DNA of 64,000 bases from contig AP039696.1 in NCBI GenBank assembly GCA_051599415.1, forward strand, positions 248,001 to 312,000, in the 5' to 3' direction. Shown here one piece after another: positions 5,635 through 60,201 of the stretch (within the stretch, counting starts at the first letter, position 1; every line of letters starts with the position of its first letter). Origin of the DNA: Savitreella phatthalungensis. Lineage: Eukaryota. Below the pieces are notes generated by a model, which ran no database searches, was not told the DNA's origin, and saw only the letters and a program-made list of their open reading frames with translations. The translations under genes and the position numbers were made by a program.

Positions 5635-8600
5635 TCACTTCAAACTGGCAACGAATCCGTCCAAGTCCTCGTACTCTTGGTACTGTCCAGAGTCATGGAG
5701 TTCGTCTAGTTGATCAAACAGTGGTTTCTCACCGGGCTTCACCAGGTTGCCCTGTAGATCGAGACCGCTTGCATCTCCAGCCTTCTGCTGCTGTTGTTGC
5801 TGCTGCTTCTGGATATCGCTCTTCTCATTTCCAGCATCAAACAGGTCAAGCAACTGATCTGTGCCCATGGTGGCCAATCCTGAGTTCTGCTGATTGACAA
5901 TGGTCGATGCAATGTTCATCTTGAACTTCTGAAGACCCATGATCTTCTCCTCAAGCGTGTTTCGTGTGATGAGCCGGTATACGTTGACAACCCGCTTTTG
6001 ACCGATCCGATGGGCACGGTCCATCGCCTGCAGGTCCTTCATCGGATTCCAGTCATGCTCGACAAAGATGACTGTATCTGCGCCAGTCAAATTCAGCCCA
6101 AGGCCACCGACGTGCGTCGTTAGCAACAGCACATCGATCGAAGGATCCGCATTGAATTGCTGGACGATGCTCTGTCGATGCCGTGGATCGACAGCGCCGT
6201 CAAGACGCATGTACGTGACATCCGGCAAAAGCGCTTTCAATAGATCCTTCTCCACAATGTCCAGCATCTCTCGCAGTTGGAAGAATATCAGAGCACGGTG
6301 CTGACCAACTCCGCCGGCAACTTCTTTTTGCCCTTGCTGTCCGTGTGAACCGCTGCTGATACCGCAATCAACAAGCAGGTCGTGTAAGGCTTGCAGCTTA
6401 GGCGCGTGCTGAACATCCCGTAGCGAGCTTCCTTGCTTCTTGAGCTTCTCGTTCGTCTTCGCGAACTGTGGGTGGGCGGCATTGAGAACGAGAGCCGGAT
6501 GGTTGCAGAGTTTGCGCATGTACTGCAATGCTTGGAAAATGTGGTTCTGGCTGTCTTTCGCAGACGAACCCGCGGCGACCTCTGTTGAAGCTGATGCAGA
6601 GACCTCATCAGCAAGGGTCTCGCCCTGTGACTTCTTGAAGTCGTTGTAGAGTGATCGCTGAAGCTCACTCAACTCGCAATAGTAATCCTGGATGATCTTG
6701 GGCGGCAGGTCCGAGAGCACGTCCTCTTTCAACCGACGAAGCAGGAACGGAAGCACTTGCTTGTGTAGAGCCTCGAGTGCAAGAGCGCCAGCTTCCTGCT
6801 CTTTGCTCGAGCTCTTGCTGTCGCGGCTGTTGGCGATCGGTTTCGCGTATCGATCGTGGAAGCTCTTCTCCGTACCAAGGAATCCAGGCATGAGGAAATC
6901 GAAGAGCGACCAGAGCTCCAGCACGTTGTTCTGGATCGGCGTGCCAGACAAAATTAGGCGATGATTCGCTTTGAGTCGTTTGACGCATTGCGTGATTTTG
7001 GCTTTAGCGTTCTTGATGACATGACCTTCGTCGAGGATGCAATAGTTCCAGTCGAGATGGCCGAGGAAATCAATATCGTTGCGAACCACGTCGTACGATG
7101 TGATGACGATATCGGCAGCTCTTGCCGCCTTCTGTAGTTGATGTCGCTCAACCGGTGGACCGACGTACGCACAGCAGGTCAGGAACGGCGCGTACTGATT
7201 GATCTCGAATAGCCAGTGACCAGACAAGGACGGCGGGCATACCACAATCGATGGCAGACGGCGGTATTCGGCGGACTGTGTCTGCGAAAAGCGCTCGGCA
7301 CGGATGTGATGATCGCTCGCGAGGATGCAAATACTTTGTAGGGTCTTGCCGAGACCCATGTCATCACAAAGAATGCCATGCAATTGATACCGGTTGAGGA
7401 ATGCGAGCCAGTTGACGCCGTCCTGCTGATATGATCGTAGGTCTGCTTTGATTGCCACTGGAATCTCAAAGTTCTCCACCTTAGTACCATCGAGCATCTG
7501 CTGGATGAATTTGCGTTCCTCATCTCGTTCCCGCAAGAGCTCTTCACTGAATCCAGGCGGATCTGGCAGACCAGCCTCTAGAGGAACAAGCTTGACAAGA
7601 CTCGCGAATGTGGTCGTGGCAAGTGTGCGGATGTCGTCGTTGGGATCACTCATCCTACCGAGGGTGGGCACGATCAAAAACACAATGTAAGGCAGGACAT
7701 CGATGTCCAGTCGGCGGACAAGAAGGTGTATCAGCTCGATAGCTCCCTGGCGGCGAACGAGGCTTCCGGCGTCTGATAGCATTGGCAAGACCGATCGAAT
7801 GACGTGCGGCATGACCGGCGTCGCATCGGTCTTGCAAATTGAGCTGAATGCGGAAGCTGCGATGAATCGAACAGCCGAGTACTTCGACTGTAATGCCGCT
7901 TGGATCTTCGGAATTGCCTCGTCGAATTGTGGCGGCAAGCCAGCAGTGAAAGTGCAAGCAATTGTCGCTAATAAGCTGACGCTGTCAATAACGTTCTGAC
8001 CAAGGACCGCGTCGTCCAAGGCGAGTTCTTCGGCCGCGCTCCTGAATGACTGGTCCAATGCAGCAAATGCGCACTGCCTCAATCCTGGGAGCCGCTCAAA
8101 GAGGTTCAAGCCATGATGCTTAGTGAAGCATGCTAGAACAAGCTCAGCACCACGGCGTTTGATCGTGACAGGTGTGATCTCGGAAAGCGAGGGAGCTGTC
8201 TCTTCGAGGGCGAGCGTATAGACGCGATCGTGAATAGCAGCGTGCGCTTCGAACTCTGGTGTGAGCCGGGTGTCCACGCAACTGAAGGCACACACATTTT
8301 TGATGAGCTTGTCGGCTGCAGACGCTCGCCCTTGTGCTTGGCATTGCTGAACAAGGGAGACAAGGGCCTCGGCAACGCGAGATTGTAGAAGCACCTCGTG
8401 CTCTTCCTTGACAGCGTCCATGAGCGACTTGATTACCGGATTGAGCTTCTTGGGGAGCTCGCCGACAGCAACGTAGGCTGTTCCGAGTCCAGCGAGGACT
8501 CTCAGGTCCTCTTGCTGCTTCTGTTGCTCAGCCAGCTCGAGCACAGTCCGGAGAGAGTCACATGCGGATTCGCACTGCTGCTTGATCGCTCCGCGGAAGC

Positions 8601-11274
8601 TATCGCCACAAGCACGAGTCATCCTGTCAAAGCCCTCCTCCACAAGCGATCTCGCAAAAGCCAGATCAAAGACCTCGTCAATAGCTGAATTGGTCCTGTC
8701 GCCGACGCAAGCTTTCGGGAGGAGCTTGATCTTGGCAGCAGGCAGCCTGGCGACTTCGATGAACGTGTTCAATAAGGCCTGTGCCTGGCCTCTGACCGAG
8801 TATATGCTCGACGTAAGATTCGTGTAGTGGGTCGGCAGTGGCTGAGACAACATCGCATCGAGGTCAGCACGTAACTTGCCTTTCTGTTCTGGCGGGAAAT
8901 TTTGTTGCAGAGCGCTGGCCAGGATGAAGGCCGCTAGGTAACGAGTCGTAGACATTGTCGAAGTTAGCAAGCGGCACACGTGGTGTACCGCTTGCGCCCA
9001 CGGTTCAGTGCCAGCAAGAAGACTGAGAGCGCGACCAGCGGCATCACATGCCAGTAATCTGCCTCGTAGGAGGGTCGAGAAGCCCATCAACTCGAGATCA
9101 CCCTGCAACATCGAGGCGTCAATATTGAACTTGCCCGGATTGTCCTCGGCGGGCTTGCCATTAGCGGCTTTGCGTTTGCGCCCGCGAGGTACTCCCTGCG
9201 GAACGCCGAGTGTATCGCTATCAGGTTCCTCCTTCGGAAGCGCAGGTGGCGACATAATCGAGCCATTTGCATTAATCATCTGGCCGATTGCAAGCGGGTA
9301 GTTGTGCCGGCCAAGGCCGATGGGTGTGACTGCCAGATCAATGAGGCTCGTAGTAAAGCTACCAATGACTCCAGCCGCACGGTCACCCAAACAATTGCAA
9401 TAGAGCTCGAAGAGCTTCACGGATGCGTTCAACACCTCAGACTGCTGCTCTACCAGCAAATTCTGGTACACGAGTCGTACGCATCGCAGATCGATCCAGG
9501 AAGAGGCATTGTCGCGATCGGCTTCCACGAGGGTTGTCAGTGCGCGAACAACGGAACGACGCACGCCTGTGATTGTGTGTCGTAGGAATGGATACAGCAG
9601 GGGTACGAGGCTGCCGATTGTGCGATCTTCGTCCTGCTCTGACTTGACTCGCATGAGAGCCAAAACTTCCGGCTTCGAGCATAGGCGAGCAAGCAGGTCG
9701 ATCACACTGCCTGTGCTGGAGCTCAGGTCGTCTTGCAGATCCGCTAGGCAATCCCACAGCACATCCAGAAGCTGATCTGTTTCCGTGGGTCGCTTCGCGA
9801 CGATCTCATCCGCGATTGGAATGAGCGAGGAAGCTGCGACTGCTTTGACATCATCGTCGCAATTTTCGAGAGCCTTGAAAACACAGCGCATGACTTCATC
9901 CATCATCGCTGGCGAAGCCGTGACTGCATCGCGTCGGACAGCGATCAGATATCTCATGCCAAGCATGCCACCATGGGTGGCCTCCCAAGCACTGGTCGGA
10001 ATGCCGGGCTGCTTGACAAGACTGCTGAGCAAGCCAAACACATGACTGACCATGTCGTCATCGAGATGGATCAACAGAGCAGAGAGAGTTTGCGCGATGC
10101 TCTCGCGAATTGGGGCGACAACCTGGTCTGCCACATAGTCGCCGAATCGGTCGAGAGCAAAGACGCAGCACAGTCTGCAGGCGAGATCTGCAAGATGTTG
10201 ACGGTTGAGCCCGTTATTGTCCGCAACTGATCGGCCGGCGATCCGACCGACGTCTTTTGCATGAGTGCGAAGCAATTCACGAAGGGCAATGGCAGCCCCG
10301 TGGCGAGTCTCCCAGAAAACATCGAAGATGTCGATAATGAGAAGTTCCAGAAGGCTCATCAAGGGCCAATGGGCAGAGGTTGTGGCTGAGAAGAGATCAG
10401 CTGGCTGAGCCTTAAGTGGTCCAGATTCAACCACCACTTTATTGTCGTTCTGTGGCTGAGTGGTGACTGAGAAGTAGTCCCCATTCACATTCGCCTTGTC
10501 TTCCGTCGGTGTCGGTGTTTCTGGGGCACCATTATATTCAACGAGACGCACTTTCCCGGAAGCTTGCTTGCTGAGCTTTGCTTTGCGCTTCATCATGTTT
10601 CGTTGTCTTGCGGATAGTCCGGCAAGATCATTGTCCTCAGAGGACGTGGCGAGTGCTGCGGCCGGCGGATGCGGCGCGATGGGAGTTGTCGGCGTGCTGG
10701 CACCTGTACCAACATCGTGGTTGGAAAGAAAATCCTTGTCCAGGTACTCAGCTCCGAGACCGAGTCTCGCTGTGACGTTATGCTTTGCTCTGGCCAGGCG
10801 CTCTTCCACGGAGAGTGCACCGAGGTTGACGTCATATTCTTGACCGCCGCTGCCGACGAGCACTTTGCCGTTGCGAACGACAGACAGGATATCGAATGTG
10901 GAGAGATCAAGCAAGCCAGCCGTTGCATCATCAGTGGCTGCAGCGTCAAGCTCATCTGTGTGCATCGCCTCTGTCTTGATTTCATCCAAGTTATTTTTAG
11001 CATTCGTGTCTGCATCGGTTTCCTCCTTTTTTACTGATGCAGCTACCGGTGGCCAGGACTCAACGTGCTCAAGAATGCCGCCTATTGCTTTTGCCGCTGC
11101 GACACGTGATTCCCATTGCTTAGAGCGCAGGTAGGGTACAATTCTGCCTAGAAGATTGAAGAGCTCGTGTGGGTGGTTCTTCTGCACTTGAGCAAGCTGC
11201 TCTGCGGCGGTCGAGCGGACGACAACATTGCCGGTATCCAGGAGAAGGACAAGTCTATCGAGTCTTGTGGCCAT
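5635..11274 (-). CDS. MOT1: TATA-binding-protein-associated SWI2/SNF2 ATPase Mot1 (BTAF1)
   Basis: 1879 aa starting MATRLDRLVLLLDTG. HEAT region includes LDRFGDYVADQVVAPIRE. SNF2 motifs GILCDDMGLGKT, DEGH, LSGTPIQNN and QAMDRAHRIGQ. Confidence 0.97.
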   Translation of the reverse strand: MATRLDRLVLLLDTGNVVVRSTAAEQLAQVQKNHPHELFNLLGRIVPYLRSKQWESRVAAAKAIGGILEHVESWPPVAASVKKEETDADTNAKNNLDEIKTEAMHTDELDAAATDDATAGLLDLSTFDILSVVRNGKVLVGSGGQEYDVNLGALSVEERLARAKHNVTARLGLGAEYLDKDFLSNHDVGTGASTPTTPIAPHPPAAALATSSEDNDLAGLSARQRNMMKRKAKLSKQASGKVRLVEYNGAPETPTPTEDKANVNGDYFSVTTQPQNDNKVVVESGPLKAQPADLFSATTSAHWPLMSLLELLIIDIFDVFWETRHGAAIALRELLRTHAKDVGRIAGRSVADNNGLNRQHLADLACRLCCVFALDRFGDYVADQVVAPIRESIAQTLSALLIHLDDDMVSHVFGLLSSLVKQPGIPTSAWEATHGGMLGMRYLIAVRRDAVTASPAMMDEVMRCVFKALENCDDDVKAVAASSLIPIADEIVAKRPTETDQLLDVLWDCLADLQDDLSSSTGSVIDLLARLCSKPEVLALMRVKSEQDEDRTIGSLVPLLYPFLRHTITGVRRSVVRALTTLVEADRDNASSWIDLRCVRLVYQNLLVEQQSEVLNASVKLFELYCNCLGDRAAGVIGSFTTSLIDLAVTPIGLGRHNYPLAIGQMINANGSIMSPPALPKEEPDSDTLGVPQGVPRGRKRKAANGKPAEDNPGKFNIDASMLQGDLELMGFSTLLRGRLLACDAAGRALSLLAGTEPWAQAVHHVCRLLTSTMSTTRYLAAFILASALQQNFPPEQKGKLRADLDAMLSQPLPTHYTNLTSSIYSVRGQAQALLNTFIEVARLPAAKIKLLPKACVGDRTNSAIDEVFDLAFARSLVEEGFDRMTRACGDSFRGAIKQQCESACDSLRTVLELAEQQKQQEDLRVLAGLGTAYVAVGELPKKLNPVIKSLMDAVKEEHEVLLQSRVAEALVSLVQQCQAQGRASAADKLIKNVCAFSCVDTRLTPEFEAHAAIHDRVYTLALEETAPSLSEITPVTIKRRGAELVLACFTKHHGLNLFERLPGLRQCAFAALDQSFRSAAEELALDDAVLGQNVIDSVSLLATIACTFTAGLPPQFDEAIPKIQAALQSKYSAVRFIAASAFSSICKTDATPVMPHVIRSVLPMLSDAGSLVRRQGAIELIHLLVRRLDIDVLPYIVFLIVPTLGRMSDPNDDIRTLATTTFASLVKLVPLEAGLPDPPGFSEELLRERDEERKFIQQMLDGTKVENFEIPVAIKADLRSYQQDGVNWLAFLNRYQLHGILCDDMGLGKTLQSICILASDHHIRAERFSQTQSAEYRRLPSIVVCPPSLSGHWLFEINQYAPFLTCCAYVGPPVERHQLQKAARAADIVITSYDVVRNDIDFLGHLDWNYCILDEGHVIKNAKAKITQCVKRLKANHRLILSGTPIQNNVLELWSLFDFLMPGFLGTEKSFHDRYAKPIANSRDSKSSSKEQEAGALALEALHKQVLPFLLRRLKEDVLSDLPPKIIQDYYCELSELQRSLYNDFKKSQGETLADEVSASASTEVAAGSSAKDSQNHIFQALQYMRKLCNHPALVLNAAHPQFAKTNEKLKKQGSSLRDVQHAPKLQALHDLLVDCGISSGSHGQQGQKEVAGGVGQHRALIFFQLREMLDIVEKDLLKALLPDVTYMRLDGAVDPRHRQSIVQQFNADPSIDVLLLTTHVGGLGLNLTGADTVIFVEHDWNPMKDLQAMDRAHRIGQKRVVNVYRLITRNTLEEKIMGLQKFKMNIASTIVNQQNSGLATMGTDQLLDLFDAGNEKSDIQKQQQQQQQKAGDASGLDLQGNLVKPGEKPLFDQLDELHDSGQYQEYEDLDGFVASLK

Positions 11275-11891: not shown

Positions 11892-11952
11892 TTGGATACA
11901 CGTTTGGATGCACACTTGGCTGCACGCTTCATGCACGCCTGGATGCACGCTT
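11892..11952. repeat. Degenerate 12-bp minisatellite (consensus TTGGATGCACGC), 5 copies
   Basis: Units read ttggatacacgt / ttggatgcacac / ttggctgcacgc / ttcatgcacgc / ctggatgcacgc. Confidence 0.75.
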
Positions 11953-12456
11953 GAGTCGAGACAAGACAATTCAATCGATGTACAGTACTTTGTTCGGCAG
12001 GATGATATCATATGGGGTTCTCGACATGCACAAGCAGACACATTGCGAACCCAATCGTGGACTGTTAATCTATTCCAGGAGGATGTTGTCTTGAAGCGCT
12101 TCGGAAAGATGTAATGTCAACAACAAATGCAACAATCAATCCAAAAGACATTGCCTTTTTGATTGATTTCTTCTGCTTGAGCCAGATGCCGGGACTGGGA
12201 GTGTCACGATTCATATCAGTTTTGGCATGTGGGTCATGCGACTCAGGTGTCTCTACTACGCATAATTCCGTGATCGAAGATTCAGTAGGGCAAATCCTCA
12301 TCAATTAAACTACGGTGTTCATGAATTATCCGACCAAGGATGACGCATGTGAAGTTCTTCTTGCGCTGAGCCACCTGTGCCCCTGGGCAGTGACATTTGG
12401 GAATGGCTGTGAACGCAGCAGACGCATTCGATCCGGAAATCAATAGACACGTCACT

Positions 12457-14262
12457 TCAAAACAGGTAGCGGCCGAGACGTCTCGCCCCTGCAATGTTCT
12501 TGGTGATCTCGTGCTCGTAAAATGACGGGGCAAACAGCGCCTGCCTGATGAGCTCCTCTGGTATGTTCTGAGCTGCCGAGAAGCGAACCTTCCGAGGGCT
12601 TTCAGAAGACATGACATCCACAGCAGCGCTTCCAAGCAGCGGTAGCACTTTACAATGCGAGGACTCGTGTCTTAATGATGGGCTTGCATCGATGGTCGCG
12701 ACTGAGCTAGACGAAGAAGGCCGGTCATCAGGATTTGCTGACAATGAAAATTGAGACAATGGCACTGCAAGGTCCATATCGTTTTCGACCTTTGCCTTTC
12801 TGCTCCGCCGCCTCTTCTGAGTCTTCTCTTTTGTCCTCTCCTCCGTCATGAGACTCTCCTGTGCGATTGTGCGGGATTCCACACCTGGAGAACCGTCCCA
12901 AACATCATCGTCGTTTTGGTCTTGTGCAGGATCTAAGGACGTTCTTGTGCCCAACTGAAAACGGTTGGAGCTGCCGTCGCTACTGTCGTCGCTACTGCCA
13001 TCGCTCGGATTGTAGTCCGAGTCGGAATTGCCAGAGTCTGTGCTATTGCTGTTTGAGTCCGCAACTGGTAGCAAATACCTTTGCAATTCCGGTGAGTCGA
13101 TAGAGCACACATCATCCGGTACCCAGTTGTCGATCGGCGGTAAGTGCCTCTCAAGATCATTGATGAGTCCACATCCAACGCTCGTTATAGCCGCTATACA
13201 TCTGATCAGCTGATCGTTGCCTGTGCTTGTGAGAAGGTCCATTGGTGGCGAGACGGTCACGACACCGCGAGCTTGGGTCGAGTCATGACTTTCGTTGCGA
13301 CCACCAATCTCCCCTGCCCTGACTGTGGGCTGAGCGCTCCAAGCAGCGTCCAAAGTATTCACATTGAGATTTGGTCGCCACTCGAGTACTCGAGCTGTAA
13401 ATCTGAACAAGGCAAGGCCGTAATACACCGGTTTCACCAAACCGGCTTGCAGATCACTTTGCCGCAAGGCCATTAGCTGGCCGATCAATTGACTTAGATG
13501 ATGATGTTCGAATGACACGCTCGTCTTGAGCTCCACCAGAAGCAGAACAGTGCGACAGCGAATGCCCTCCAGCGAAATGGGGTCGTTTGTGATCATGAAG
13601 TCTGTTTCGACATGTTTCTGAACGCCGTCATGCATGAAATCGATTTCTGGCCGCGAGTGTATACGTAGTCGAATGTTATCGCCCATTGCTGCAAAGAGCG
13701 GATCCTGCAAATGTTGTGCCAGCCATTCATGATAGTCTTGTTGATAATCGCGCTCCAAGAGAGATTCCTGGCTCGGGTCCATAGCAGCTCGCCGGAGGAA
13801 AAATCGCATTATCTCATTATCGAGCTGTGAAGCAGCCCTGTCAGTTTGAAATTGATAGGCTAACGGCCAGCCAGTCCGGTACCTGACTCGCTTCTTTGTC
13901 AACAAGTGGCTGTTGACGCGAGATGAGATGTCTATTTGGATATGCGGCGAGTTCCGATGTAAAGCATACCAGCCAACGTAGCGATCCAGTGCCTCAACGT
14001 CGACCTCTGTGTTCTCTACAGCAACGCGTGCCTTGTAGTGCAGCCGCCTATGATCAGCGCAACCATGGTTTGCATCGGTTGTTGACACAGCGGTAGACGA
14101 GCCGATTATCGCATAGCTAGGCGTGACATATCCCTCCCCAACCAATCTGGTATTGCGGGGTCTCAACGTCCTGCGCGCGGCATGCTGTTGCCTCGAGTTG
14201 TGAGTCACATTGTTTTGGTCTACGGGCGAGTCCAACGGTGAACAGCCTGAAGCGCTTGACAT
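12457..14262 (-). CDS. Hypothetical protein with a putative PD-(D/E)XK (restriction-endonuclease-fold) domain and a low-complexity D/S-rich C-terminus
   Basis: Uninterrupted 601-aa ATG-initiated ORF. Motif order LLERDYQ ... ETDFMI ... LLLVELKT ... HLSQLIGQLMA ... VYYGLAL. It also has a basic NLS-like patch KRRRSRKAK. Confidence 0.6.
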   Translation of the reverse strand: MSSASGCSPLDSPVDQNNVTHNSRQQHAARRTLRPRNTRLVGEGYVTPSYAIIGSSTAVSTTDANHGCADHRRLHYKARVAVENTEVDVEALDRYVGWYALHRNSPHIQIDISSRVNSHLLTKKRVRYRTGWPLAYQFQTDRAASQLDNEIMRFFLRRAAMDPSQESLLERDYQQDYHEWLAQHLQDPLFAAMGDNIRLRIHSRPEIDFMHDGVQKHVETDFMITNDPISLEGIRCRTVLLLVELKTSVSFEHHHLSQLIGQLMALRQSDLQAGLVKPVYYGLALFRFTARVLEWRPNLNVNTLDAAWSAQPTVRAGEIGGRNESHDSTQARGVVTVSPPMDLLTSTGNDQLIRCIAAITSVGCGLINDLERHLPPIDNWVPDDVCSIDSPELQRYLLPVADSNSNSTDSGNSDSDYNPSDGSSDDSSDGSSNRFQLGTRTSLDPAQDQNDDDVWDGSPGVESRTIAQESLMTEERTKEKTQKRRRSRKAKVENDMDLAVPLSQFSLSANPDDRPSSSSSVATIDASPSLRHESSHCKVLPLLGSAAVDVMSSESPRKVRFSAAQNIPEELIRQALFAPSFYEHEITKNIAGARRLGRYLF

Positions 14263-15913: not shown

Positions 15914-18463
15914 ATGCCGCCTCCGGTACAGTCCCTTCTTGGACCATACCTGGCACCTGGAACGAGCATACAGGTCGGTCATTACAATACACAGATCGTG
16001 CGTTACCTCAGCGAAGGTGGCTTCTCCCATGTCTATATCGCCAAGCTCGATACGCCATTCAAAGGGCGCGATACGGCCGTGCTTAAGCGTATCGTCGCGC
16101 CTGATAAGCATCATCTGGCCTCGATCAGGACAGAGGTCGACACGATGAAGCGGCTCAAGGGACACCGCCATGTGGTCACTTACATCGACTCGCACGCCTC
16201 GCAGCTACGTCAGGGAGGCTTCGAGGTCTATGTGCTGATGGAATTCTGCCCAGGCGGTGGTCTCATCGACTTCATGAACACGCGACTGCAGACGCGCTTG
16301 GCAGAGTGGGAGGTGCTCAAGATTTTTAGCGATACGGTCGAAGCAGTCGCTTGCATGCACTATCTCAAGCCTGCGCCTTTGCTACATCGTGATCTCAAGA
16401 TTGAGAACGTGCTAATCTCTAGTCCAGACTGCTACAAGCTGTGCGACTTCGGTTCCTGTTGCGAGCCCAAACCTGCTGCAGGAACATCTGACGAACGCCG
16501 ACTACTCGAGGACGACATTCAGCGCAACACGACGATCCAGTATCGCTCACCTGAGATGATTGATCTCTCCAGGCGCCTCCCAATTGATGAGAAATCCGAC
16601 ATATGGGCTCTTGGTGTCATGCTGTACAAGCTTTGCTATTTTACCACACCGTTCGAGGCACAAGGACCCGTGGCTATCTTGAATGCCGCCTACACTTTCC
16701 CAGCATATCCCCCTTACACTGACAGAACAAAACGCTTGATTGCGGTCATGCTGCAGGAGCATCCGAAACAGCGACCGAACATTTATCAACTGCTCGCTGA
16801 GGTCTGCGATATGCGTAAAGTTCCAGTCCCTATTCCTGATATTTATAGTCGACGTGCGCGAGAGAGTGCTCCTTCTCAGCAGCCGTCTCAGCGAACTCGA
16901 TCGGAGGAGGAGAAACAATCGGACGCACCGCTCAGAGAGCCAGCACACGCAGCTGCGCTTCGTGACAGTGCACCCAAAGCTTTGCCGAAACCGCCGCTGC
17001 AAAGCGGCGCTCGAATCAGAACGTCCGGTCTTGTTGATAAACAGGACACAACACTCCCGCCATCGAAGCCAAACCGAAATGTTGATCGTGTTGGAAGCGG
17101 CTTCGATGACGTTCTCTCGAAACCATCCCTCAAGCCCAGTGGCGATGCCTTTGAGAGCAAATTCCCTAGTCTGGAAGAGCTCGGCTACGATTTGGTCGCG
17201 CCTGGAGAAGCAGCATCGGCACCAGTGGAGTCTATCGCACCCGCTGTCAAGACCGGATCATCAAGACATAGTGCTGCTGATGAACGTGCAGCCTTGCGGC
17301 GAAGTCTATCCCAAAGACGTCCATCTGCAGAGGCGGCGCAGAAGGAATCGGCGGCAGAAGAAGAGATTGAAGTTGCTGAGATTATACCGTTACGCCAGAC
17401 GACAGCCGAGGTCCAAGCTGGCAGATCACCAGAAATCGTTCAGCAGCCCGATTTGAGGCCGGTATTACCACAAGTCGCTCAAACGCTACCTTTCCGTTCT
17501 CAAAATCCGTATGACAAGAGCGAAAGCTTACCACGCCAAGCGCCCGAAATCAGGCAGAAACCTGTATTTGCCGGTCGACCCTCGGCCACCGATATCTCAA
17601 ACACGCCAATCATCCGGCCTCGTTCTGCAGCGCAAACGCGGCCAAAGAGCATGTTTGTGCCGTCCAGCTCATCTGGCAAGAGCGGACTAGACTCTCTGCA
17701 GCAGTCCGTTGCAATGGCTAAAGCGAGGTTTGAGGGTACCGATAGGGTCCTTCAAGCCAGTCAGGCGAATTTGCCACTCCAAAGAGATCCTCAACCGCTG
17801 CCAGGTATGTCAGGCGCCCCTGTCAAGCGATCTGTGTCGACCAGCATCCGGCCGGCGCATGGGCGCAAACCATCTTTGAGCAAGTTGACATCATTCACCG
17901 GCACGTCGAAGCTCGGTGGCAAGTTTAACGATGCCATTCGAAAGTTCGAGGGTGGTTCATCACACCGATCAGCTTCACGTGAGAACAATGCGGTCACCGT
18001 CCCTCTCCAAGTGTCAACACAGCCTATCTCAGACAATGTGGAAGAGCAGCTGCGCGCGTCAGCCGCACGGAGAAGTGCATCATTCGAAGGCCGCACCGCC
18101 CGACCGCAGGTACTCGCCCCATCGGCCGTGCACAAGGGACAGTCCGGCGGTGAAGGTGTTGAATCGTCGTCATTCAGTATGAAGGAAGCCATGCAAAGAC
18201 TGAATGCGAAGGCAAGTGCTCCTTACCAGGGTCCCAAAACGGCCTCTGGCTATGGAAAGTACACGGACTCTCCCGAACGTGCAGCGACCGTCATCCCGAC
18301 GACTTCCGCAAGTTCAGCTTCGACACGATCGACAATATCAAGGCAACAGCACCTGGACCTTGACCGTTCAAGCATCCGAGAGCTCGATGGTCAAAGTTCA
18401 GGCGACACTGACTCCTTCAGCAAACGATTTCCATCGTTACAAGATGTGGACTTCGCGGTATAA
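15914..18463 (+). CDS. NAK-family (Ark1/Prk1/Akl1-like) Ser/Thr kinase, endocytic actin regulator
   Basis: LSEGGFSHVY, LMEFCPGGGLIDFMNTRL, HRDLKIEN, LCDFGS, NTTIQYRSPEM and KSDIWALG, followed by a long Pro/Ser-rich tail. Confidence 0.93.
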   Translation: MPPPVQSLLGPYLAPGTSIQVGHYNTQIVRYLSEGGFSHVYIAKLDTPFKGRDTAVLKRIVAPDKHHLASIRTEVDTMKRLKGHRHVVTYIDSHASQLRQGGFEVYVLMEFCPGGGLIDFMNTRLQTRLAEWEVLKIFSDTVEAVACMHYLKPAPLLHRDLKIENVLISSPDCYKLCDFGSCCEPKPAAGTSDERRLLEDDIQRNTTIQYRSPEMIDLSRRLPIDEKSDIWALGVMLYKLCYFTTPFEAQGPVAILNAAYTFPAYPPYTDRTKRLIAVMLQEHPKQRPNIYQLLAEVCDMRKVPVPIPDIYSRRARESAPSQQPSQRTRSEEEKQSDAPLREPAHAAALRDSAPKALPKPPLQSGARIRTSGLVDKQDTTLPPSKPNRNVDRVGSGFDDVLSKPSLKPSGDAFESKFPSLEELGYDLVAPGEAASAPVESIAPAVKTGSSRHSAADERAALRRSLSQRRPSAEAAQKESAAEEEIEVAEIIPLRQTTAEVQAGRSPEIVQQPDLRPVLPQVAQTLPFRSQNPYDKSESLPRQAPEIRQKPVFAGRPSATDISNTPIIRPRSAAQTRPKSMFVPSSSSGKSGLDSLQQSVAMAKARFEGTDRVLQASQANLPLQRDPQPLPGMSGAPVKRSVSTSIRPAHGRKPSLSKLTSFTGTSKLGGKFNDAIRKFEGGSSHRSASRENNAVTVPLQVSTQPISDNVEEQLRASAARRSASFEGRTARPQVLAPSAVHKGQSGGEGVESSSFSMKEAMQRLNAKASAPYQGPKTASGYGKYTDSPERAATVIPTTSASSASTRSTISRQQHLDLDRSSIRELDGQSSGDTDSFSKRFPSLQDVDFAV

Positions 18464-18724: not shown

Positions 18725-20623
18725 ATGACTATCGGAGTGCCATACGAATCATTGTCACGTAATGTCAGCCTTAATGCGCCGCAAAGGGCTAGCTCAGATA
18801 GCTACGACTGTCGTCAGAACAGATTCACCTCCCACGCTGCAGCAATGCCAGGCGAGATTCAAAGTCATGATGCCGATGAAGCCGAATTTCACTCTGGAGC
18901 TGAGGATGAGGAAGAAGATGATGATGATGATGTGGACAAGTACATTCCAGTCACCGACACCTTCGTTCGTCATGCTGCGCCGCACGAGCTGCTGGGCTCT
19001 ACCGACAAGCGCAGAGTCCAAGGTGTTCAATTGGAATTACAACTTCAGTCTGCCACTCATGTTGGCGGCGGACGCGTGCGCGGCACACTCGTCATACAAT
19101 ACAACGAGAAAGCCAAGAAACACAAGCTGACATCTGTGACTGGTATCAAGCTCGACTGCATTGGCTGTGAAGGTGAGTCCAGAAAGGTCCCATTCAACTA
19201 ACGTTCGGGACACTGATCATTGACAGCTGGCAAGTCAGTCCCACAACACTTGTTCTTCAATGTCGCTCAGGACATCATCACTGAAAGCGTGACGCTTGCC
19301 GAGCTTGAACAGCGCTTCAAAGGAGATCAGCCTGCGGCACGTGGATCGGTCAGCATTCCGTTTGCCCTACAACTGCCGCTCGACGTGAGCCTCCCTCGTT
19401 CTACTCATTGACATCATCCACTGACAGTCAGGTCGGTCCCGGGCATTTTGCTGAAGCAGACAATAAGATCACTTACACCCTCTACTGTACCGTTCTGCTC
19501 GCCCATCCAAAGCGGTTCCCGAAGGGCAAATATCTTCGCGCCGTGCGGAACGTGCGAATCTATCCTATGCTGGATGCGAGCAAGGTATTCGTGCCGTCGC
19601 ACGCACCGATGCAGGTAGTCGAGGATGAGAAGGTGCGTTTCGGTGGAGGCGATACGCTGAAGCTCGCAGCACGCCTCCATCGAGCGACCTGTATCGCCGG
19701 TCAGCGTGCTCAAGTCGAAGTATCTGTCAACAACGACACGCGACGCGACGTTAAGCGGATTGTCGCCAAGCTTGTCCGGCATATCGTCACGTACAAGTAC
19801 GCTGCCGCGTCTGCGGGACACCAGCAAGTCGATGGACGAGTTCCAGACAAAATTGACACGACGATCATCTGCACCAATCTACTCGAGAGGCACAGTGACA
19901 AGTCTGATGACGAGAAGTGGGCTGGTGTTTCTGCCAAGTCACATGCCACAGTGCTCCGATACATCGACATACCGGACAATCAGCTCTCCATTGGAGCTGG
20001 CAGGCATTGTAAGAGCGCTGTCCAGCGTGAGTGAGTTGCACAAACGACTGACATCTTTAGTTGAGGTTCGCTACGTGCTGTCAATTACTGCGCAGACGGG
20101 CGGTGGCAGTGCGACTGTCGAGATGCCGTTGACGATCATTAGCATGCATTCCGTCGATATCATGCCGAACGAGCTAGGCACGGTGATGCGCATGGTAGCA
20201 GCGTACCAGCTCGACGATGCGCCTTTGCGACCGTCAACATCAAGACGTGCTTCTCGCGCGTCAAGTGTGGCGTCCATTCCATCGGTCCGCTACTCATTTG
20301 ACGGGCGCAATGACGAGGCGGGAGGTGAATCGCAGCCACCACCGATTCCTCGCAAAGCGCCTTCCCGTCAGAGCTCTCGCCAGACGCTCCGCGATGGAGA
20401 GTCTCGAAGAACTGCATCTGCAGACTTACGCCGCGCCCTTTCGCTCGATTACCATCACCGCCTCAACATCCTGAGCATCTCGCCTGAGAATGTTCGAGTA
20501 TCCAGTCCGATCCAGCTCCAGCGCAAAGGCAGTGACCATCGATCCTACCATGGCTCTGAGAATCTCGCTCGTCGCCTGCATCGAGAGAATTCCGAATGCC
20601 CGAACTTCAGTGACCTGCTCTGA
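18725..20623 (+). CDS. Arrestin-domain protein (alpha-arrestin-like), 4 exons: 18725-19172, 19227-19384, 19432-20008, 20061-20623
   Basis: Three short GT-AG introns (19173-19226, 19385-19431, 20009-20060) with CTGAC/CTAAC-like branch sites join four ORF fragments in frame. Arrestin-like segments are VGGGRVRG, IPFALQLPLDVGPG, VSVNNDTRRDVKRI and FEVRYVLSI. Confidence 0.78.
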
Positions 20624-28701: not shown

Positions 28702-30645
28702 CTACATCATCATATCATCGTCATCGTCGTCTTCATCACTCTCCTCCTCGTCATCGTCGTCGTCGTCGAGACCAGTCCATTCGACGTAGTAGGGCTCTAT
28801 GTAAGGGCTCGAGAGGTTGAGCCTGAAAGGGTCGAATGGGAAGTATCCATCGATTTCGAGGTGGTTTTGAGTTTTTGTGCGATTGTTGTGAGCGATGAGG
28901 GGCGCGCAGTAGACGAGTCCGTGGGTGTAAGCGAATTTGGAGAACTCTGCGACGACGGCGGCATTGCAGTGTCTAAGCGGGTTGAGACGCCGGTGGTAGA
29001 CCGCACGCTCCACAGTCGCCTGAAGTCCAGAGCACCACGGAGACCGCATCGGATCCTCAGGCTCGACCTCATCGTCCAATCCACGCAGCGTCCTGTGTCG
29101 GAAGCAGAAGATGTAGAACAGGGCCTGGCACATGGAGTAGAAGACGCCGTGGCGCGCGGTCGCGTTCGCATCACGACCGCCTAGCGAGGTGGCATGGTGG
29201 GAAGCTGATGAGGACGTGACAGACGAGCCTTCTGGAAGGAGTGAATTCCTCAGTGCCTCGTTCTGGTCGACGGTGTCGATGTAGTCGTTCAGCCAATTGG
29301 CGAGCACACTGACGAGCATGCGAATCGTCTGGCGCGTCAGCGTCTTTGCGCGGGCGGTGAACGATCCAATGTACGCAGCGGCAATCATGCGCTGTGTCGC
29401 TGGACGACTCGTGTCCATTGCGTTCGACATGATGCAGCCGAGAAAATCATCGATGAAGACCGGTTGCTTTTGAGCCGCCCAGAAGAGGATGAATTGCGTG
29501 TAGCGACTCTGGTAAGTCCGCAGGATTGTCTGGTCGAGACCAATGAGCAGGGCGCCAAAGGTATCCTGCATGCGTGTCATGCCAAATACGAGCTTGCTGT
29601 CATCAAAGATGCCAGACAGATGACGAAGGATGACTGCGAGGACATGGTCGAGCTTCCGGACATTGTCGCGAATAGCGTCAAGGGTCATATTCGTCAGTGT
29701 CATTTCGACTTCCACATCTGAATCATCGTCATCAGCAATCGCAACAGTGTCGATGCTTGTAGTTTGAGGATTGAATGCTGCATCGTCTTCGTCATCATTA
29801 AGTTTGTCATCGTCCTCATCATCGTCAGAGAGCTCCTCTCTTTTAGCAGGCCTGTTGTCAGACGTGAAAGCCTGATCAACGTCCTCCATGTCTTCAAGTT
29901 CGACCTGTATTTCCACATCGATAGAGATGATTTTGTCGATGATGACAGCAATGACTGCGGCCTCGATATCTGGGATGTACAGCGTCAACTTCAGCAAGTT
30001 CTCGATGAAAGTTGTCTGGGCTAGCGTCTTCTCCGATTTGTGCGGAAACTCGGCTAGAAGCACAGGAACCAGGCTTTCCTTCGCTACTGGCACTAGCGAC
30101 AGGATATGTGAAAGGCATGAGTGGACGCGGGCATGCATAGTCTCCCGCGATACGATCTTGTGGCTGGGCAATTGACCTACTGACGAATGTATGAGCGTCA
30201 AGTTGCGGGCGAGCATCTGTATGACAAGGGTAGCGAAGTCCGCGTGTGCAGTGACGAGACTCCCGAGGAAATGGGCGTAGACGGCGACGAACCGGTCAGA
30301 ACGACCAAGCCAATTCATGTCGATGATGCTGCGCACCAGTGAGATGGCTGATCTGTCGAGGTAACTGATTTGCTGCGTAAGTGCATAGAGGAGGAGCTGG
30401 AGCTGGTCTGATGTCGGTGCTTGAGCATCATTCACCTTAAGAACAAAGCTTCGCTGGAGCTCATCGAAACGAACATCGTTTCCCTGGGCACGCTGTCGGA
30501 AGGCTTCTTGTACCACCTCCTGAGTAATGCGCCGGCGGAATTTGAGATCGGACATGGCGTCGCCGGCAGGCAAGTCTGGTTTCACTTGCAGCGGTTGCAA
30601 CTGCGCCGGATCTTGAGGAGGAGGGCGTGCAGTTGCGGCGACCAT
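28702..30645 (-). CDS. RRN3: RNA polymerase I transcription initiation factor Rrn3
   Basis: FPHKSE, IISIDVEIQ, KLDHVL, SRYTQFILFW, AAAYIGSFTARAK, FYSMCQALFYIFCFR, LNPLRHC and YFPFDP. Confidence 0.95.
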   Translation of the reverse strand: MVAATARPPPQDPAQLQPLQVKPDLPAGDAMSDLKFRRRITQEVVQEAFRQRAQGNDVRFDELQRSFVLKVNDAQAPTSDQLQLLLYALTQQISYLDRSAISLVRSIIDMNWLGRSDRFVAVYAHFLGSLVTAHADFATLVIQMLARNLTLIHSSVGQLPSHKIVSRETMHARVHSCLSHILSLVPVAKESLVPVLLAEFPHKSEKTLAQTTFIENLLKLTLYIPDIEAAVIAVIIDKIISIDVEIQVELEDMEDVDQAFTSDNRPAKREELSDDDEDDDKLNDDEDDAAFNPQTTSIDTVAIADDDDSDVEVEMTLTNMTLDAIRDNVRKLDHVLAVILRHLSGIFDDSKLVFGMTRMQDTFGALLIGLDQTILRTYQSRYTQFILFWAAQKQPVFIDDFLGCIMSNAMDTSRPATQRMIAAAYIGSFTARAKTLTRQTIRMLVSVLANWLNDYIDTVDQNEALRNSLLPEGSSVTSSSASHHATSLGGRDANATARHGVFYSMCQALFYIFCFRHRTLRGLDDEVEPEDPMRSPWCSGLQATVERAVYHRRLNPLRHCNAAVVAEFSKFAYTHGLVYCAPLIAHNNRTKTQNHLEIDGYFPFDPFRLNLSSPYIEPYYVEWTGLDDDDDDEEESDEDDDDDDMMM

Positions 30646-31278
30646 GAGGTGAAGATTCGCTGCTTTGGGTCCAGTTTTCTCAACAGGGCTGAATGTATGA
30701 GTGCTCGCGTGGAAGTTGCGGAAAGGTCAGGGACGAATCATTGGATTGCGTAGATGAGTGGTAACAAAGACTGTCGACCAAGAGCAGTCAAGGGAGGACT
30801 TGACGAAGCTCTTGCGTTCAAGCGTAAGCTCACCCTTTCTTCACCCAAAGCGCTTCAAGAGCAGAAAAGGACTATCAGGCAGAACAGAGCTTTTGATCCT
30901 GGTGATGTGCCTAGCTCCAGGTTGTGGATGATGTGATCCTACTGGTATCGTCCGGTGCGTGCATACAGTTTTTTTTTTCTGTCTTCTTTTGATCACTCCG
31001 CATAAACAGTTGGATGCATGGTCAAAAAATTCAGATTGAGCTCATGAGTCTACGAGCCTTTTAAAAAGTACTGGGGACTTTTATATTAATAATTAAATTT
31101 TGTCAGATTAGGCTGGATCTTCAATTAATTCAATGAGGTGGATACTTGGTGGTATGAGAAATTGATTGATATTCGACCTCGAGCTATACCAATGCAACGA
31201 CCACTTCTGCATCTACGTACAGCCTTGCACTTAGTGAATGTTTGCCTCCCTTGTCTCCTCCAGATCTGTCCTAGTGGG

Positions 31279-31355
31279 TCAAGTCCTCAGTGTATCAAGT
31301 CCTCAGTGTATCAAGTCGTCAGTGTATCAAGTCGTCAGTGTATCAAGTCGTCAGT
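31279..31355. repeat. 16-bp tandem minisatellite TCAAGTC(C/G)TCAGTGTA, about 4.8 copies
   Basis: Units start at 31279, 31295, 31311, 31327 and 31343. The first two have C and the last three have G at the variable site. Confidence 0.92.
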
Positions 31356-33239
31356 TGTCCAACATAGAGCATAGGCTGATATGCATGCACACTGCTCAGC
31401 ATGGTCTGTCCGTGTTGCAGTCCAGAGAGATGAGCATGCGAGCTGTGCCATGGGGTATAGAGTGCATACACAAGCTAGTGTACACGGACTAGCTATGATT
31501 CAGATGTATGAGCAAGCTTCAATGCAGGATACCAGCCAGAAAGACATTATACAAATCGTGAGCTCGACGGTGCTTGAGTTCGCACCACTATAGGGTCTCC
31601 TGCCAACTGCGAGTCACTTGCAGTGAAGTCACCACTCAAACCATCACGGCAAGCGCTCCTTGTCAATCTGTAGTATCACATTAATTTGCCCGAGGCTGCC
31701 ATTCGGAATAGCCAGGTTCTGCATAGCAAGCTGTCCGCTACCTTTTCGATAGAGCATGATCCTTCAAGAATGGCCATGCATCAGGAGGTCTCATGCATCA
31801 GAGGCAGCAGCAGCGCGGCGTGCACGGCTCTCTAGCAAAGCCTCCTTCTTCTCTTGCAAAAGGACCTTCTGTCGCTGCTCAGCGCTGCAAAAAGAGTCAG
31901 TCATGCAAACTTGATCACCATCAGGACCGCTTACTTGTAGAGGTAATAACCTACACCGCCAAAGACCGCTGCATATACGCCAGTGACGTGGAGAGCTTGG
32001 GCAGCCTGTCAGTATCTGTTCTTCGTATGGCGCTTCGTCCTGTCAATAGTCCTTACTCTCAGTCTGAGACTTGCGCTGAAGTGCGAGCTGGAAAGAGCGC
32101 GTCAGCATTCCAAAAGCCGACCAGCCGGCAAGATTTGCGAGGAGAGACTGGAAAGCAGGAGTCAGTCATGGGCTGTTATTTAGAAAGGACGAAAGGCAGT
32201 TCATGCCACAACATACCATGTCTCTGCCGGTATTGGAGGTGTTTTGCGTGAGCTGACGATCGAGCTCTTTTTGATGAGGACGAAGTTGATCAGACCTGTC
32301 GCTTATACTACCTTGAATACAATGGGCCTGCTAATAGTAGGACAGCCTATTGAGTGCGCTCACTGCACTCACTCACTTGAACGGTGCTCGTTAATCCAGC
32401 AGCCTTGCTCGAGCGTGATCGATGTTCGTCGGGCTCTGCATGTTGTTGCAAAGGAAAATGTGCAAAGCACGTGTCCTGGATCGCAAATATGCTTTCCAAA
32501 CCTGGAACACGTGCTTTACAGGACTCTCGTCGCGATCACATTATCTGCGAGGAAGTATACATCCACCATAATACCCTTGCAGTACGTATGCGCAGTCAAC
32601 GGCATATACTTACCGTGCGTCCAACGAACAGTGGTCTAGCAATCGAGCAAACCTGTCATCCAGGTAAGGCAGTAAATGGACCGATATAGTAGACATGGTA
32701 TAACATTTGAGCACACGCATCCTACGTAGCTATATAACAGATCTATTCTCTGGAAACATATTCCTAAAGACTGGTCGCGAGCATATATCTACTAGTACTA
32801 AATCTAAGTCATGCATCCATAAGGGCAACCTTTGCACGCACGTGCATTGTTCCCCATTCCATCTCCTTGATCAGAGGATAGCTTTCCAGATCGAAGCTTA
32901 AATGGTACCAAGCACCATACACGCGTAATATTGGCACCAGCTAGCGTCTGACTGAACACAACCCACGCTGGCACGCATCCATTCACCTTCACCTTGGCAG
33001 ACAAGTACACGCATTGCGTTATCGGTTCGGCCGACAATCTTGAAGCTAGGCTGTCGATATATATAGATCGATCACGCTTGCTGGCAGTTGTCATATCGAG
33101 GACATTTCTGCCGTCCGTGCGCAAGCTCGGGTCGCTCGATAGAGCACGTAAGCCTTCAGGCATGCATGCGTAACTGCATTTTCATTCTATATCCTGCACG
33201 CTCCAGCATTCTTTCATTTGTGCTGCGACGACTTACAAA

Positions 33240-53478: not shown

Positions 53479-55755
53479 TCATTCGACGTCGCCGTCATCG
53501 TCATCAGAATCCTCCACAGAGGCGGCCAAAGCGCTGCGCATGGACCGCGTGCTCTTGCGCGAGAAATCGGTGGCGTGTGCCTGAGAGACTGTCGGTTGCT
53601 GTGTCTGGGAGTGTTCGATCCCTTGGTGTGCCTCGACGGGAGCCATGTCTGTTCCAGTGCCAGCGACAAAGTGACTAGCACCGATGGCGAATGGCAGTGG
53701 CAGCTCTCGCGTTGCTCGGTAGTTAATAACATTGGAAACGTGTTCGTTCTCGACTCGAAAAGAAGACCACATGCTGCGTCGCAGGATCTCCACGAGAGCA
53801 ATAAAAAACGACACAGTGGCTGCATGTTGCATGTCGTTCTGAAAGATAACATAAAAAATCCAAGAGCAGCGCAGAACTGGATCGCTGAAGAGGAAGAAGT
53901 AATATGGCCATGTCTCCCGAAATGCCAGTTGATCCCGGAGTAGCCAGTGCTTTGAACCTCGTTGCAGCAATGATGTATCCATGATCAAGTCCCTGAACAC
54001 TGTCAGTCAAGCCGTATTCGATTGCAAGGCTGCACCTTACCAGCCAGATGTAAAACAACTGTTGATACATGCAAACAGGATGAAAAGCGCCCGGTGCGTC
54101 GAGGTACGCTCGATGCGCCATACCGAAAGAAAAGTGTAGGTGAGAATGGTAAAGCTGTATTTTGCGGCATTCAGGGCATGCGGGAACCAGTGGCGAGTAT
54201 CTGGGAAGGTCAGTAGCAGCTTGCGTGCGCGCGATCAACTCTGACCCTTGTATCGCCTCAGAGAATGCAGCAGACGTATAATGCCCGGCAGCGTTGTGAA
54301 GAAGCCAAATAGCCGAGATCGTGACGAGCCGCATTGCAGGAGACCATTCCAGTGCTGTGTATACGTACAGAAGAAGAGAGAGATATTCCCGGCACTGTAA
54401 GTCAAACTGTTGAGGAGATCGCCGAGGAACACGTCCTGAAAGCGGACAGTCACGAGGCCTGATAGCAGCAATCGCAAAATTGCAAAACCTAGCCATTTGC
54501 GCGAAGATCTATGACCGACTTTGAGCGGCAAGAGCAAGAGGGATGCTGTAGCGACAGTGAAGACAACTGGGTACCAAGTTGCGAAGGTCGGGAAAAAGTC
54601 GCTACAGTTCATCCAGAAAAGCAGGGCATAGATGAGCAACAGAATACTGGGCAGTTCGAGGTATTGATACCAAGTCAGGTTATGATTGATGTCGAACTCA
54701 AAGATGAACACGTAGTTGATCTTGGACCTGTCCCACAGGAAGCAATTGACCCCAAATAGCAGACTCGCTAGGAGCAGAAAGAAAAAACCAGCCCAAATCT
54801 GCAGCAGAAACGACCGTGTAAGCCCTGAGCCAAGACTTGCCGAGGCCTCGGACTTGACAATTCCTTCGAGGAGCAGGGGAAGGCTGGCGCCCAAGCACAA
54901 GCCAATGCGCAGAAGGGTGAAGCGCGAGTCCTCCGTTCGCTCGTGCATTCGGAGCGATGTCAATGCGTGCTTTCGGCTCGAGAAGAAGTTGTCCGTGTAG
55001 AGCGTCTCTGTCTCGCGTATGAGATGCTCCGTCTCTTCCGACTGTCCTACGCTGGTTTTGCTGTGGAAATAGTCCAGGTAGGCCGTCTTCAGGGGTATTC
55101 TTGCCGCCTTTTCGAACTTTTTGAGGACTTTCGTTATGGCTGTTTGATTGAGAGCTTGATAGGAAGCCAAGAGCTCAAGCGAGTGATAGAATTCCTTCAT
55201 AGCGAGTCTGATGCGACGACGAACAATTCGATAATTGATAGAAAGCTGCGTTGACGTCGCATTCGGGCTATTATCTCGCAAAGGATAGCGATCAATCAGG
55301 TCACTATCAGCGTATTCGAGTGCTGACCGTATGTCCGCCTTCAAGCGGTCCCAAATCGCAACAATGTGCGCTGATTGCGGCCTCTCCACGACTTCGACGC
55401 TCGTGCGAGCTTGCTTGAATACATCACGCAAATCGCGCATTTCCCTCAGTTGGACACGAATCTCACCGAGCCTTCGGGCCGCGTCTGCTTCTTTCCGACA
55501 GTAGAATTCATCGATGCGCGCCATCTCGCTCTTCAGAAATCCCTCAAAGACTGCCACAGTATTGTGCTCGTCGCCGAACAAAGCTGAGCTCTCATGATTA
55601 TCCAATAGGGTCGACGTCTCCAAAGTGACAGTGTCCCTCGTGTTTGATCTGGACAGTTCGACTCGTTTGATGAGCTTTTTGCCTTTCTTGTAATCGAAAT
55701 AGGCAGATCGCCATTCATTGACAGCTCCGGCATCGAGTTGCTTTGCGAACTTCAT
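53479..55755 (-). CDS. SYG1: SPX-EXS domain protein Syg1 / XPR1 (phosphate exporter family); exons 55755-54246, 54200-54041, 53992-53479
   Basis: SPX start MKFAKQL..EW...YFDYKKGKK and KVLKKFEK. EXS motifs INYVFIFEF, spliced RRYKDTRHWFPHALNAAKY, GWDLIMD and EILRRSMWSSFRVENEH. Introns are 54201-54245 and 53993-54040. Confidence 0.92.
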
Positions 55756-59717: not shown

Positions 59718-59721
59718 GCGT

Positions 59722-60201
59722 TCAAATCATGAGCTTCCATTTATGTTCATCCGCCGAGGGCGGACTGTCTAGCTGCGTGGGGTCATGGGTCTTCCGGCAA
59801 ATCCATTGATGTCCATCGTGTTGAACGACATCGTTTCGAGCGTAGTGTCGATCAGCAGTCCAGGCGCTGGCAGGTCGTCCGACATGCTTAGGTTTGTGCG
59901 CCGATTTGAGTGTGTACGGACATGACCACATGCCACCATAGCGATATCCGGAGCTGACTCCATCCACTTTGCCCCCACTAATCTTCTGCCAGCAGCCCGT
60001 GGTACACAGCATCCGCCAGGGCTCACACTCGCCCGTCCGGCAACGCACCAGGACTTCTCGCGGCTGGTCGCATGCTTCGCAATGTTTCAAATGTCTACCG
60101 ATCTCAGCATCATCAAGCTGTCTCAAAGCTCGCTTCTGCGCTTTCACAGCCTTTTTGTGAGCCTTTCGCAAGCCCTTCGACTCTTCTTCTTCACCGCGCA
60201 T
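59722..60201 (-). CDS. Small hypothetical protein: Cys-rich putative Zn-binding module plus C-terminal CBM5/12-like module
   Basis: CEAC...VLVRC....W..LC...CW..ISGG..DG....YRYGGMW, followed by AW....HY...DVVQHDGHQWICRKTH...PP....W. First ATG is at 60201; the frame is open to 60261. Confidence 0.65.
   Translation of the reverse strand: MRGEEEESKGLRKAHKKAVKAQKRALRQLDDAEIGRHLKHCEACDQPREVLVRCRTGECEPWRMLCTTGCWQKISGGKVDGVSSGYRYGGMWSCPYTLKSAHKPKHVGRPASAWTADRHYARNDVVQHDGHQWICRKTHDPTQLDSPPSADEHKWKLMI

Follow-up and report, generated by a model that had tools for sequence, protein, structure and literature searches.

The window considered here is a 64,000-nucleotide stretch of contig AP039696.1 (positions 248,001 to 312,000 of the forward strand; assembly GCA_051599415.1) from the yeast Savitreella phatthalungensis, and the gene under study occupies window positions 12457..14262 on the minus strand. 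It is an unbroken ATG-to-stop frame of 601 codons (protein P0001), flanked by the genes for a Mot1-type protein and a NAK-family kinase in otherwise housekeeping surroundings. The gene is a real, resident and taxonomically restricted gene of a Taphrinomycotina yeast; it has a homologue, it is present in one copy in the window, its composition is native, and the residues of a candidate nuclease motif in its product are conserved. Our preferred reading, held tentatively at a little under an even chance, is that this gene encodes a probably nuclear protein whose middle block is most likely a PD-(D/E)XK core. The gene is read as an ordinary chromosomal gene of unassigned cellular role rather than as a demonstrated selfish element. 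The fold and the catalytic activity are inferred, as are the nuclear location and the roles proposed for the remaining blocks.

A preliminary description of this DNA had singled out an intact, intronless 601-amino-acid (aa) open reading frame (ORF) unlike its housekeeping neighbours. This is borne out by the uninterrupted frame, by the lack of a Pfam family and by the housekeeping character of other ORFs in the window. The features of the gene are given below in window coordinates; block identities are those between the product and its single relative (P0002), i.e., between two sequences only.

12457..14262, minus strand: complete single-exon ORF, 601 aa plus stop; matches P0002 at E 1.9e-47
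14062..14262, minus strand: N-terminal part, aa 1-67, polar and poorly conserved (27-29% identity over few aligned positions)
13843..14061, minus strand: conserved block A, aa 68-140 (58% identity, the highest of all blocks)
13681..13842, minus strand: helix-like linker with LLERDY, aa 141-194, weakly conserved (20% identity)
13363..13680, minus strand: conserved block B, aa 195-300, candidate PD-(D/E)XK core (38% identity)
13600..13602, minus strand: D221, candidate metal-binding Asp (invariant in both sequences)
13525..13533, minus strand: E244-L-K246, candidate (D/E)xK (E and K invariant in both sequences)
13477..13491, minus strand: Q258-x3-Q262, beginning 12 residues past K246 (both Q invariant in both sequences)
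13276..13362, minus strand: variable insertion, aa 301-329, mostly unaligned and largely missing from P0002
13138..13275, minus strand: conserved block C, aa 330-375, with GVVT-x-SPP ... L-x-RC-x-AAI (48% identity)
12460..13137, minus strand: C-terminal tail, aa 376-601, polar, net charge -12, beyond the partial P0002 and without a Pfam family
12943..13077, minus strand: D/S/N/G-rich tract, aa 396-440, by sequence composition
12790..12816, minus strand: basic patch KRRRSRKAK, aa 483-491, resembling a nuclear localization signal (NLS)
12580..12594, minus strand: RKVRF, aa 557-561, short enough to be a chance occurrence

An exhaustive phmmer search of 1.84 billion cluster representatives returned two proteins at E ≤0.001, namely the query itself and P0002, a protein of 316 aa from S. 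phatthalungensis (Taphrinales, Taphrinomycotina) which is flagged as partial, annotated as hypothetical and 40% identical to the query over aa 61-375. The earlier label "orphan" is, hence, nearly right: no Pfam family is matched, but exactly one relative can be detected. A word-indexed homologue search with the 601-aa protein returned the query alone, P0002 lying outside the length band of that search, and a two-sequence profile of the query and P0002 retrieved nothing beyond P0002 from the word-indexed collection. When the same two-sequence profile was run against 185,579 bacterial and archaeal genomes, 136 stretches matched as patterns and none of them was confirmed, and tblastn with the core against 50,697 phage records gave no match at E up to 10.

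The neighbouring RRN3 gene (28702-30645, minus strand) has its nearest named relatives in Protomyces lactucae-debilis (46% identity) and Saitoella coloradoensis (38%), while its best relatives in a collection of 5.8 billion proteins are 51% identical and come from records without a species name. Relatives that distant indicate that the Taphrinomycotina lineage to which the window belongs has been sampled sparsely. In the same protein collection, 13 non-self clusters at at least 42% identity are found for RRN3, as compared with one relative altogether for the 601-aa gene; the family of this gene is, therefore, either clade-restricted, i.e., narrow, or patchily distributed.

The conserved region spans ~310 aa (aa 68-375) and comprises three blocks, with 20-22% identity in the stretches between them, and this blockwise conservation with P0002 suggests purifying selection. 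Block A carries the signatures C-x-DH-x-R-x-HYKARV, GWYA-x-HR-x-SP and RVRY-x-TGWP-x-AY. Upstream of it, the hydrophobic fraction of the first 60 aa, which are polar, is 0.22, and no hydrophobic signal-like stretch was found in the N-terminus. At the other end of the protein, a 12-nucleotide coding tandem repeat (12971-13005, minus strand; 2.9 copies, 86% matches) encodes the DGSS/DDSS units of the acidic tract, from which it appears that the tail grows by repeat slippage. RKVRF lies 45 residues from the protein end and opens the sole non-polar stretch of the tail (aa 557-601); its sequence agrees with the RVxF consensus for docking to protein phosphatase 1, but so short a motif may be due to chance. 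The D/S-rich disordered tail and the basic NLS-like patch that had been announced in the preliminary description were both found, the former as the tract at aa ~396-440 and the latter as KRRRSRKAK, a putative NLS. The product of the 601-aa gene is probably nuclear.

Block B can be read as the strands NIRLRIHS, HVETDFMIT and TVLLLVELK, followed by the helix HLSQLIGQLMALRQ and the strands PVYYGLALF and ARVLEW. The positions at which the motifs had been placed earlier proved accurate, give or take a few bases—TDF at 13597-13605 (D221), VELK at 13525-13536 (E244 and K246), QLIGQ at 13477-13491 (Q258 and Q262) and YYG near 13420. All five motif residues, i.e., D221, E244, K246, Q258 and Q262, are invariant in the two sequences, within a block of merely 38% identity. 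A catalytic Asp and a (D/E)-x-K are, at the sequence level, both present; their placement on successive strands follows from hydrophobic periodicity. The periodicity of the hydrophobic moment is strand-like at aa 196-203, 217-226 and 238-247 (NIRLRIHS, HVETDFMITN and TVLLLVELKT) and helix-like at aa 253-269 (HHHLSQLIGQLMALRQS), which would fit the portion of a PD-(D/E)XK core formed by a strand with D, a strand with ExK and a helix with Q, and is weak evidence for it.

The frequency of such motifs in other sequences depends strongly on how they are defined. The loose pattern D-x(8,30)-[DE]-x-K is so frequent by chance that it is meaningless on its own: 72 of 104 background proteins contain it, as do 879 of 2000 shuffled versions of the core. 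If three hydrophobic residues are required before [DE]-h-K, the counts drop to 5/104 for the background and 32/2000 for the shuffles, and none remains in either set (0/104 and 0/2000) once Qxxx[QY] is also required 8-16 residues later. However, the composite pattern was composed after the sequence had been seen, and RRN3 homologues make up 86 of the 104 background sequences, which makes the test a biased one that overstates significance.

Among 24,736 Pfam models and 5,027 PADLOC models, matches to the core were limited to Cas_Cas4 of Pfam (E 0.3 and 0.16), Cas4 of PADLOC (E 0.047) and PDC-M47B of PADLOC (E 0.002-0.007), all of them on aa ~211-272 and all sub-threshold. PDC-M47B is a family without a description, and a literature search returned no paper on PDC-M47. 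The two independent Cas4 models cover the same stretch of the protein, matching positions 38-98 of 160 and 52-96 of 158 of the respective profiles, and this agreement is suggestive. In the ESM Atlas, for which scores below 0.9 count as leads only, neighbours scored 0.80-0.87, and with aa 61-375 as query, nine of the ten best named neighbours belonged to the same family or clan as the best one, which carries HSDR_N. As leads only, the named neighbours lean towards the restriction-endonuclease clan.

The order of the motifs is that of the RecB family, comprising Cas4, the N-terminal domain of HsdR and the nuclease domain of RecB: an Asp is followed by a hydrophobic strand ending in E-x-K and, ~12 residues on, by a helix that begins with Q. 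It is the Cas4 models whose sub-threshold matches fall on the motif segment of the 601-aa protein, and the HSDR_N domain that is carried by its named ESM neighbours. There are also differences. The conserved Q258-x3-Q262 of the 601-aa protein is akin to the QxxxY motif of RecB, HsdR and Spok nucleases, for which a role is described (PMC6660238), but has Q in place of Y. In Cas4-type nucleases, an iron-sulfur (Fe-S) cluster bound by four cysteines flanks the nuclease core; such a four-cysteine cluster is not seen in the 601-aa protein, in which C68 and C355 are the only conserved cysteines. Furthermore, in comparison with the RecB-family nucleases, the protein is eukaryotic, carries a disordered tail in addition to sizeable conserved blocks of its own, and reaches no significant score. 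A further point of comparison is the fungal family PDDEXK_12 (PF20516), the members of which comprise 263-389 aa and are annotated as PD-(D/E)XK nuclease-like. It appears among the ESM neighbours at 0.80-0.83, a range that is often reached by shuffled sequences, and it gave no Pfam match at E up to 10 with the whole protein, with pieces of the core or with P0002. A literature search found no paper on PDDEXK_12, PF20516, DUF6826 or PF20713.

If the fold holds, aa 195-300 would form a small metal-dependent nuclease core of the PD-(D/E)XK type, similar to those of RecB, HsdR and Cas4, with D221 and E244-x-K246 on consecutive strands and the Q258xxxQ262 helix thereafter. In such a core, the Mg2+ ligands would be D221 and E244, and the water that attacks and cuts a phosphodiester bond in DNA (or RNA) would be positioned by K246. 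Block A (aa 68-140) may supply substrate or partner specificity, while nuclear import and regulation could be the task of the acidic Ser/Asp tail, expanded by repeats, together with the basic patch and the RKVRF-containing segment at the C-terminus.

Several results weigh against a nuclease core. None of the profiles of PD-(D/E)XK member families is matched significantly; Cas_Cas4 reaches 12.5 bits, as compared with its gathering score of 22.7, and none of the weak nuclease matches recurs in P0002, the sole other member of the family (0 of 1). The whole protein has no significant match in Pfam, NCBIfam, PHROGs or the PDB, and scans of the first three with pieces of the core and with P0002 likewise yielded none that was significant. 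The sole Pfam match of the whole protein is a chance one to Ribosomal_S17_N (E 0.26), NCBIfam gave 0 matches, and PHROGs gave none for the window protein. Searches of the PDB by sequence and by profile, with the whole protein, the core and the two-sequence profiles, returned unrelated chains alone at E 0.25-1, i.e., MatP (E 0.25), a ribosomal protein, ornithine carbamoyltransferase and a zeta subunit. In the ESM Atlas, all scores stay below 0.9, and the ESM recognition value is 2036, as compared with the 2300 reached by most known families.

Profile-profile comparison yielded no signal. When the two-sequence profile was aligned by hhalign with 300-aa windows of 13 Escherichia coli K-12 proteins, no separation was obtained: HsdR, Mrr and McrC, which are known PD-(D/E)XK proteins, did not outscore the unrelated controls, and the top score was a chance match to LgoT. 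Two profiles compared by hhalign with an HsdR_N alignment of 59 sequences from 62 loci—a family picked on the ESM lead—gave a probability of 0.1%. The acidic residue expected in the first core helix, which the preliminary description had seen in the Glu of LLERDY, does not hold up, considering that E170 is not conserved in P0002 and sits in the least conserved block. An acidic residue in this helix is found in many PD-(D/E)XK member families, but not in all of them. Finally, it is block A, and not the putative nuclease core, which is best conserved. AlphaFold2 models based on two-sequence alignments drew the core as all-helical, yet unconfidently, with a mean predicted local distance difference test score (pLDDT) of 32.9 for aa 61-380 and 40.8 for aa 140-300; at such values, an all-helical core from a two-sequence alignment is uninformative rather than contrary.

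Taken as a claim about the fold, the earlier assignment survives in part. What speaks for it is that D, ExK and QxxxQ are conserved in both sequences and that Cas4-type sub-threshold matches fall there; what speaks against it is that no match is significant and that E170 varies. A PD-(D/E)XK fold of aa 195-300 is plausible, with the chances for and against it about evenly balanced.

The most serious alternative, to which we give a large share of the probability that nevertheless stays clearly short of one half, is a lineage-specific nuclear protein with a non-nuclease fold, such as a scaffold or regulatory protein, in which D...ExK...Q would reflect the coincidence of a hydrophobic strand with an amphipathic helix. 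The libraries searched offer no significant family or structure match that would contradict it; the loose motif is common in the background proteins and shuffles; the strongest conservation (aa 68-140) lies outside the motif block; E170 varies; and both the hhalign result with HsdR_N and the lack of nuclease-like matches in P0002 are as expected for such a protein. Against coincidence stand the five motif residues that are invariant despite the modest identity of their block, the sub-threshold matches from two independent libraries, which are to Cas4-type models on the motif segment, and the leaning of the named ESM neighbours towards the restriction-endonuclease clan.

The preliminary description had gone further and had proposed a selfish element, an effector toxin or a meiotic-drive gene. 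In its general form, this explanation holds that the gene belongs to genetic conflict, be it as a Spok-like killer nuclease without the kinase antidote, as a translocated effector toxin or as a transposon-linked nuclease. The sparse distribution, with one relative as against 13 non-self clusters for RRN3, and the possible nuclear-targeting patch are in keeping with it, yet we consider it improbable. Positive evidence for a role in conflict, mobility, effector action or drive was not obtained. The GC content at third codon positions (GC3) of the gene is 0.558, inside the range of 0.506-0.732 of 19 neighbouring ORFs, and its synonymous-codon score is -1.214, inside their range of -1.048 to -1.269; its composition is, therefore, native. 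Searches for flanking direct or inverted repeats gave short, chance-level matches alone. The window contains no transposon genes among its ORF families, no tRNA gene and no Rfam family, and tblastn within its 64 kb found no paralogue; the 90% cluster of the gene has one member on one contig. The N-terminus is neither hydrophobic nor signal-like, and the blockwise conservation with P0002, suggestive of purifying selection, also speaks against this explanation. The selfish, effector or drive reading is one that rests on orphan status and sparse distribution alone.

Two conflict systems lend themselves to comparison. Crinkler-associated restriction-endonuclease effectors share with the 601-aa protein a eukaryotic origin, a motif like that of restriction endonucleases and a patch for nuclear targeting. 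However, the latter has neither a Crinkler or ubiquitin-like header (Pfam) nor a signal-like N-terminus, its candidate nuclease core is central and not C-terminal, and its gene is single-copy in the window. That no kinase domain or ubiquitin-like header is evident had been stated before and is upheld, since the whole protein matched no kinase domain and no Crinkler family of Pfam at E up to 10. As for the Spok system of Podospora, SPOK3 is described as starting with an N-terminal coiled coil and a domain of unknown function; its PD-(D/E)XK domain, with the catalytic motif at residues 219-240 and a QxxxY motif, precedes a Cys cluster and the kinase domain, and killing is abolished by the K240A exchange (PMC6660238). 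The SPOK3 motif at 219-240 corresponds to D221-K246 of the 601-aa protein, which resembles the first half of the SPOK3 architecture alone, without the Cys cluster and without the kinase. In the exhaustive phmmer scan, similarity to Spok proteins was absent and P0002 was the only protein retrieved, although 282 Spok3 homologues are reported from Ascomycota in the same source (PMC6660238). Within the window, no gene family, no Spok block and no transposon context accompany the gene.

A more specific proposal combines both ideas in an undescribed, patchy Taphrinales family of nuclear PD-(D/E)XK nucleases acting in genetic conflict. In one form of it, the protein would act as a toxin or killer module comparable to the nuclease half of Spok, its antidote being encoded elsewhere or provided by regulation via the tail. 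A patchy family of this kind would explain why a copy is detected in a single one of the many relatives sampled; we nevertheless regard it as very improbable. That the frame arose by chance or belongs to a pseudogene in decay, for which one might cite the lack of a known family, the low ESM recognition value of 2036 and the low-complexity tail with its tandem repeat, is scarcely credible given that 601 open codons at ~52% GC are very unlikely by chance (an estimate and not a computed value), that P0002 matches with blockwise conservation and that GC3 and codon use are like those of neighbouring genes.

If the PD-(D/E)XK fold were true, the gene would represent a small new family within a very large superfamily, confined to a poorly sampled, early-diverging branch of the ascomycetes and bearing an unusual conserved N-terminal block. 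This would help the annotation of Taphrinales genomes, while being unsurprising in itself. Interest in the gene would rise with presence/absence polymorphism, as revealed by population or comparative genomics, or with toxicity upon expression. As things stand, the case calls for caution, given that D...ExK alone is frequent by chance and that orphan status is no evidence of genetic conflict.

Housekeeping genes surround the 601-aa ORF. Its left neighbour (5635..11274, minus strand) is of the Mot1 type, with DUF3535, an SNF2-related domain, Helicase_C and HEAT repeats. The right neighbour (15914..18463, plus strand) is divergently transcribed, and its kinase catalytic domain matches those of human AAK1, BIKE and GAK at E 2e-64 to 2e-51, which identifies it as a NAK-family kinase. 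This adjacent kinase was considered as a Spok-like partner and ruled out, since it is of the AAK1/BIKE/GAK type (E 2e-64), an ordinary endocytic kinase type. Housekeeping families were found in 17 of the 19 other long ORFs scanned in the window, and no family was found in two of them. The families comprise PP2C, adaptin, MFS, an LSD1-like amine oxidase with SWIRM, RRN3, class I tRNA synthetase, HEAT repeats, Stm1, Pal1, Gpi16, alpha-mannosidase, AMP-binding enzyme, SPX-EXS, F-box/LRR, EFR3 and two kinases.

Some of the other ORFs in the window deserve mention in their own right. The ORF at 19832-20623 (plus strand) encodes 263 aa and matches no Pfam model at E up to 0.1. In the SPX-EXS ORF (54235..55755, minus strand), the EXS domain breaks off at profile position 187 of 330, and an ORF in another frame, at 53723..54496 and without a Pfam match, overlaps it, which suggests an intron or a frameshift in the gene in the region 53723-55755 (minus strand). 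The HEAT-repeat ORF of 409 aa at 39048-40277 (minus strand) matches a PPP2R1A-like HEAT family and seems to be shorter than a complete PP2A scaffold subunit; its gene probably has introns or further exons. Two stretches, 30646-33239 (2.6 kb) and 59718-64000 (4.3 kb), contain no ORF of at least 200 aa in an otherwise gene-dense window and may hold intron-rich or short genes. Finally, the 1.2-kb spacer between the start of the Mot1 gene and the 3' end of the 601-aa ORF contains a tandem array of TTGGATGCACGC at 11892-11953, with a period of 12 and 5.2 copies or, alternatively, a period of 23; as a candidate, this array could be a repeated protein-binding site.

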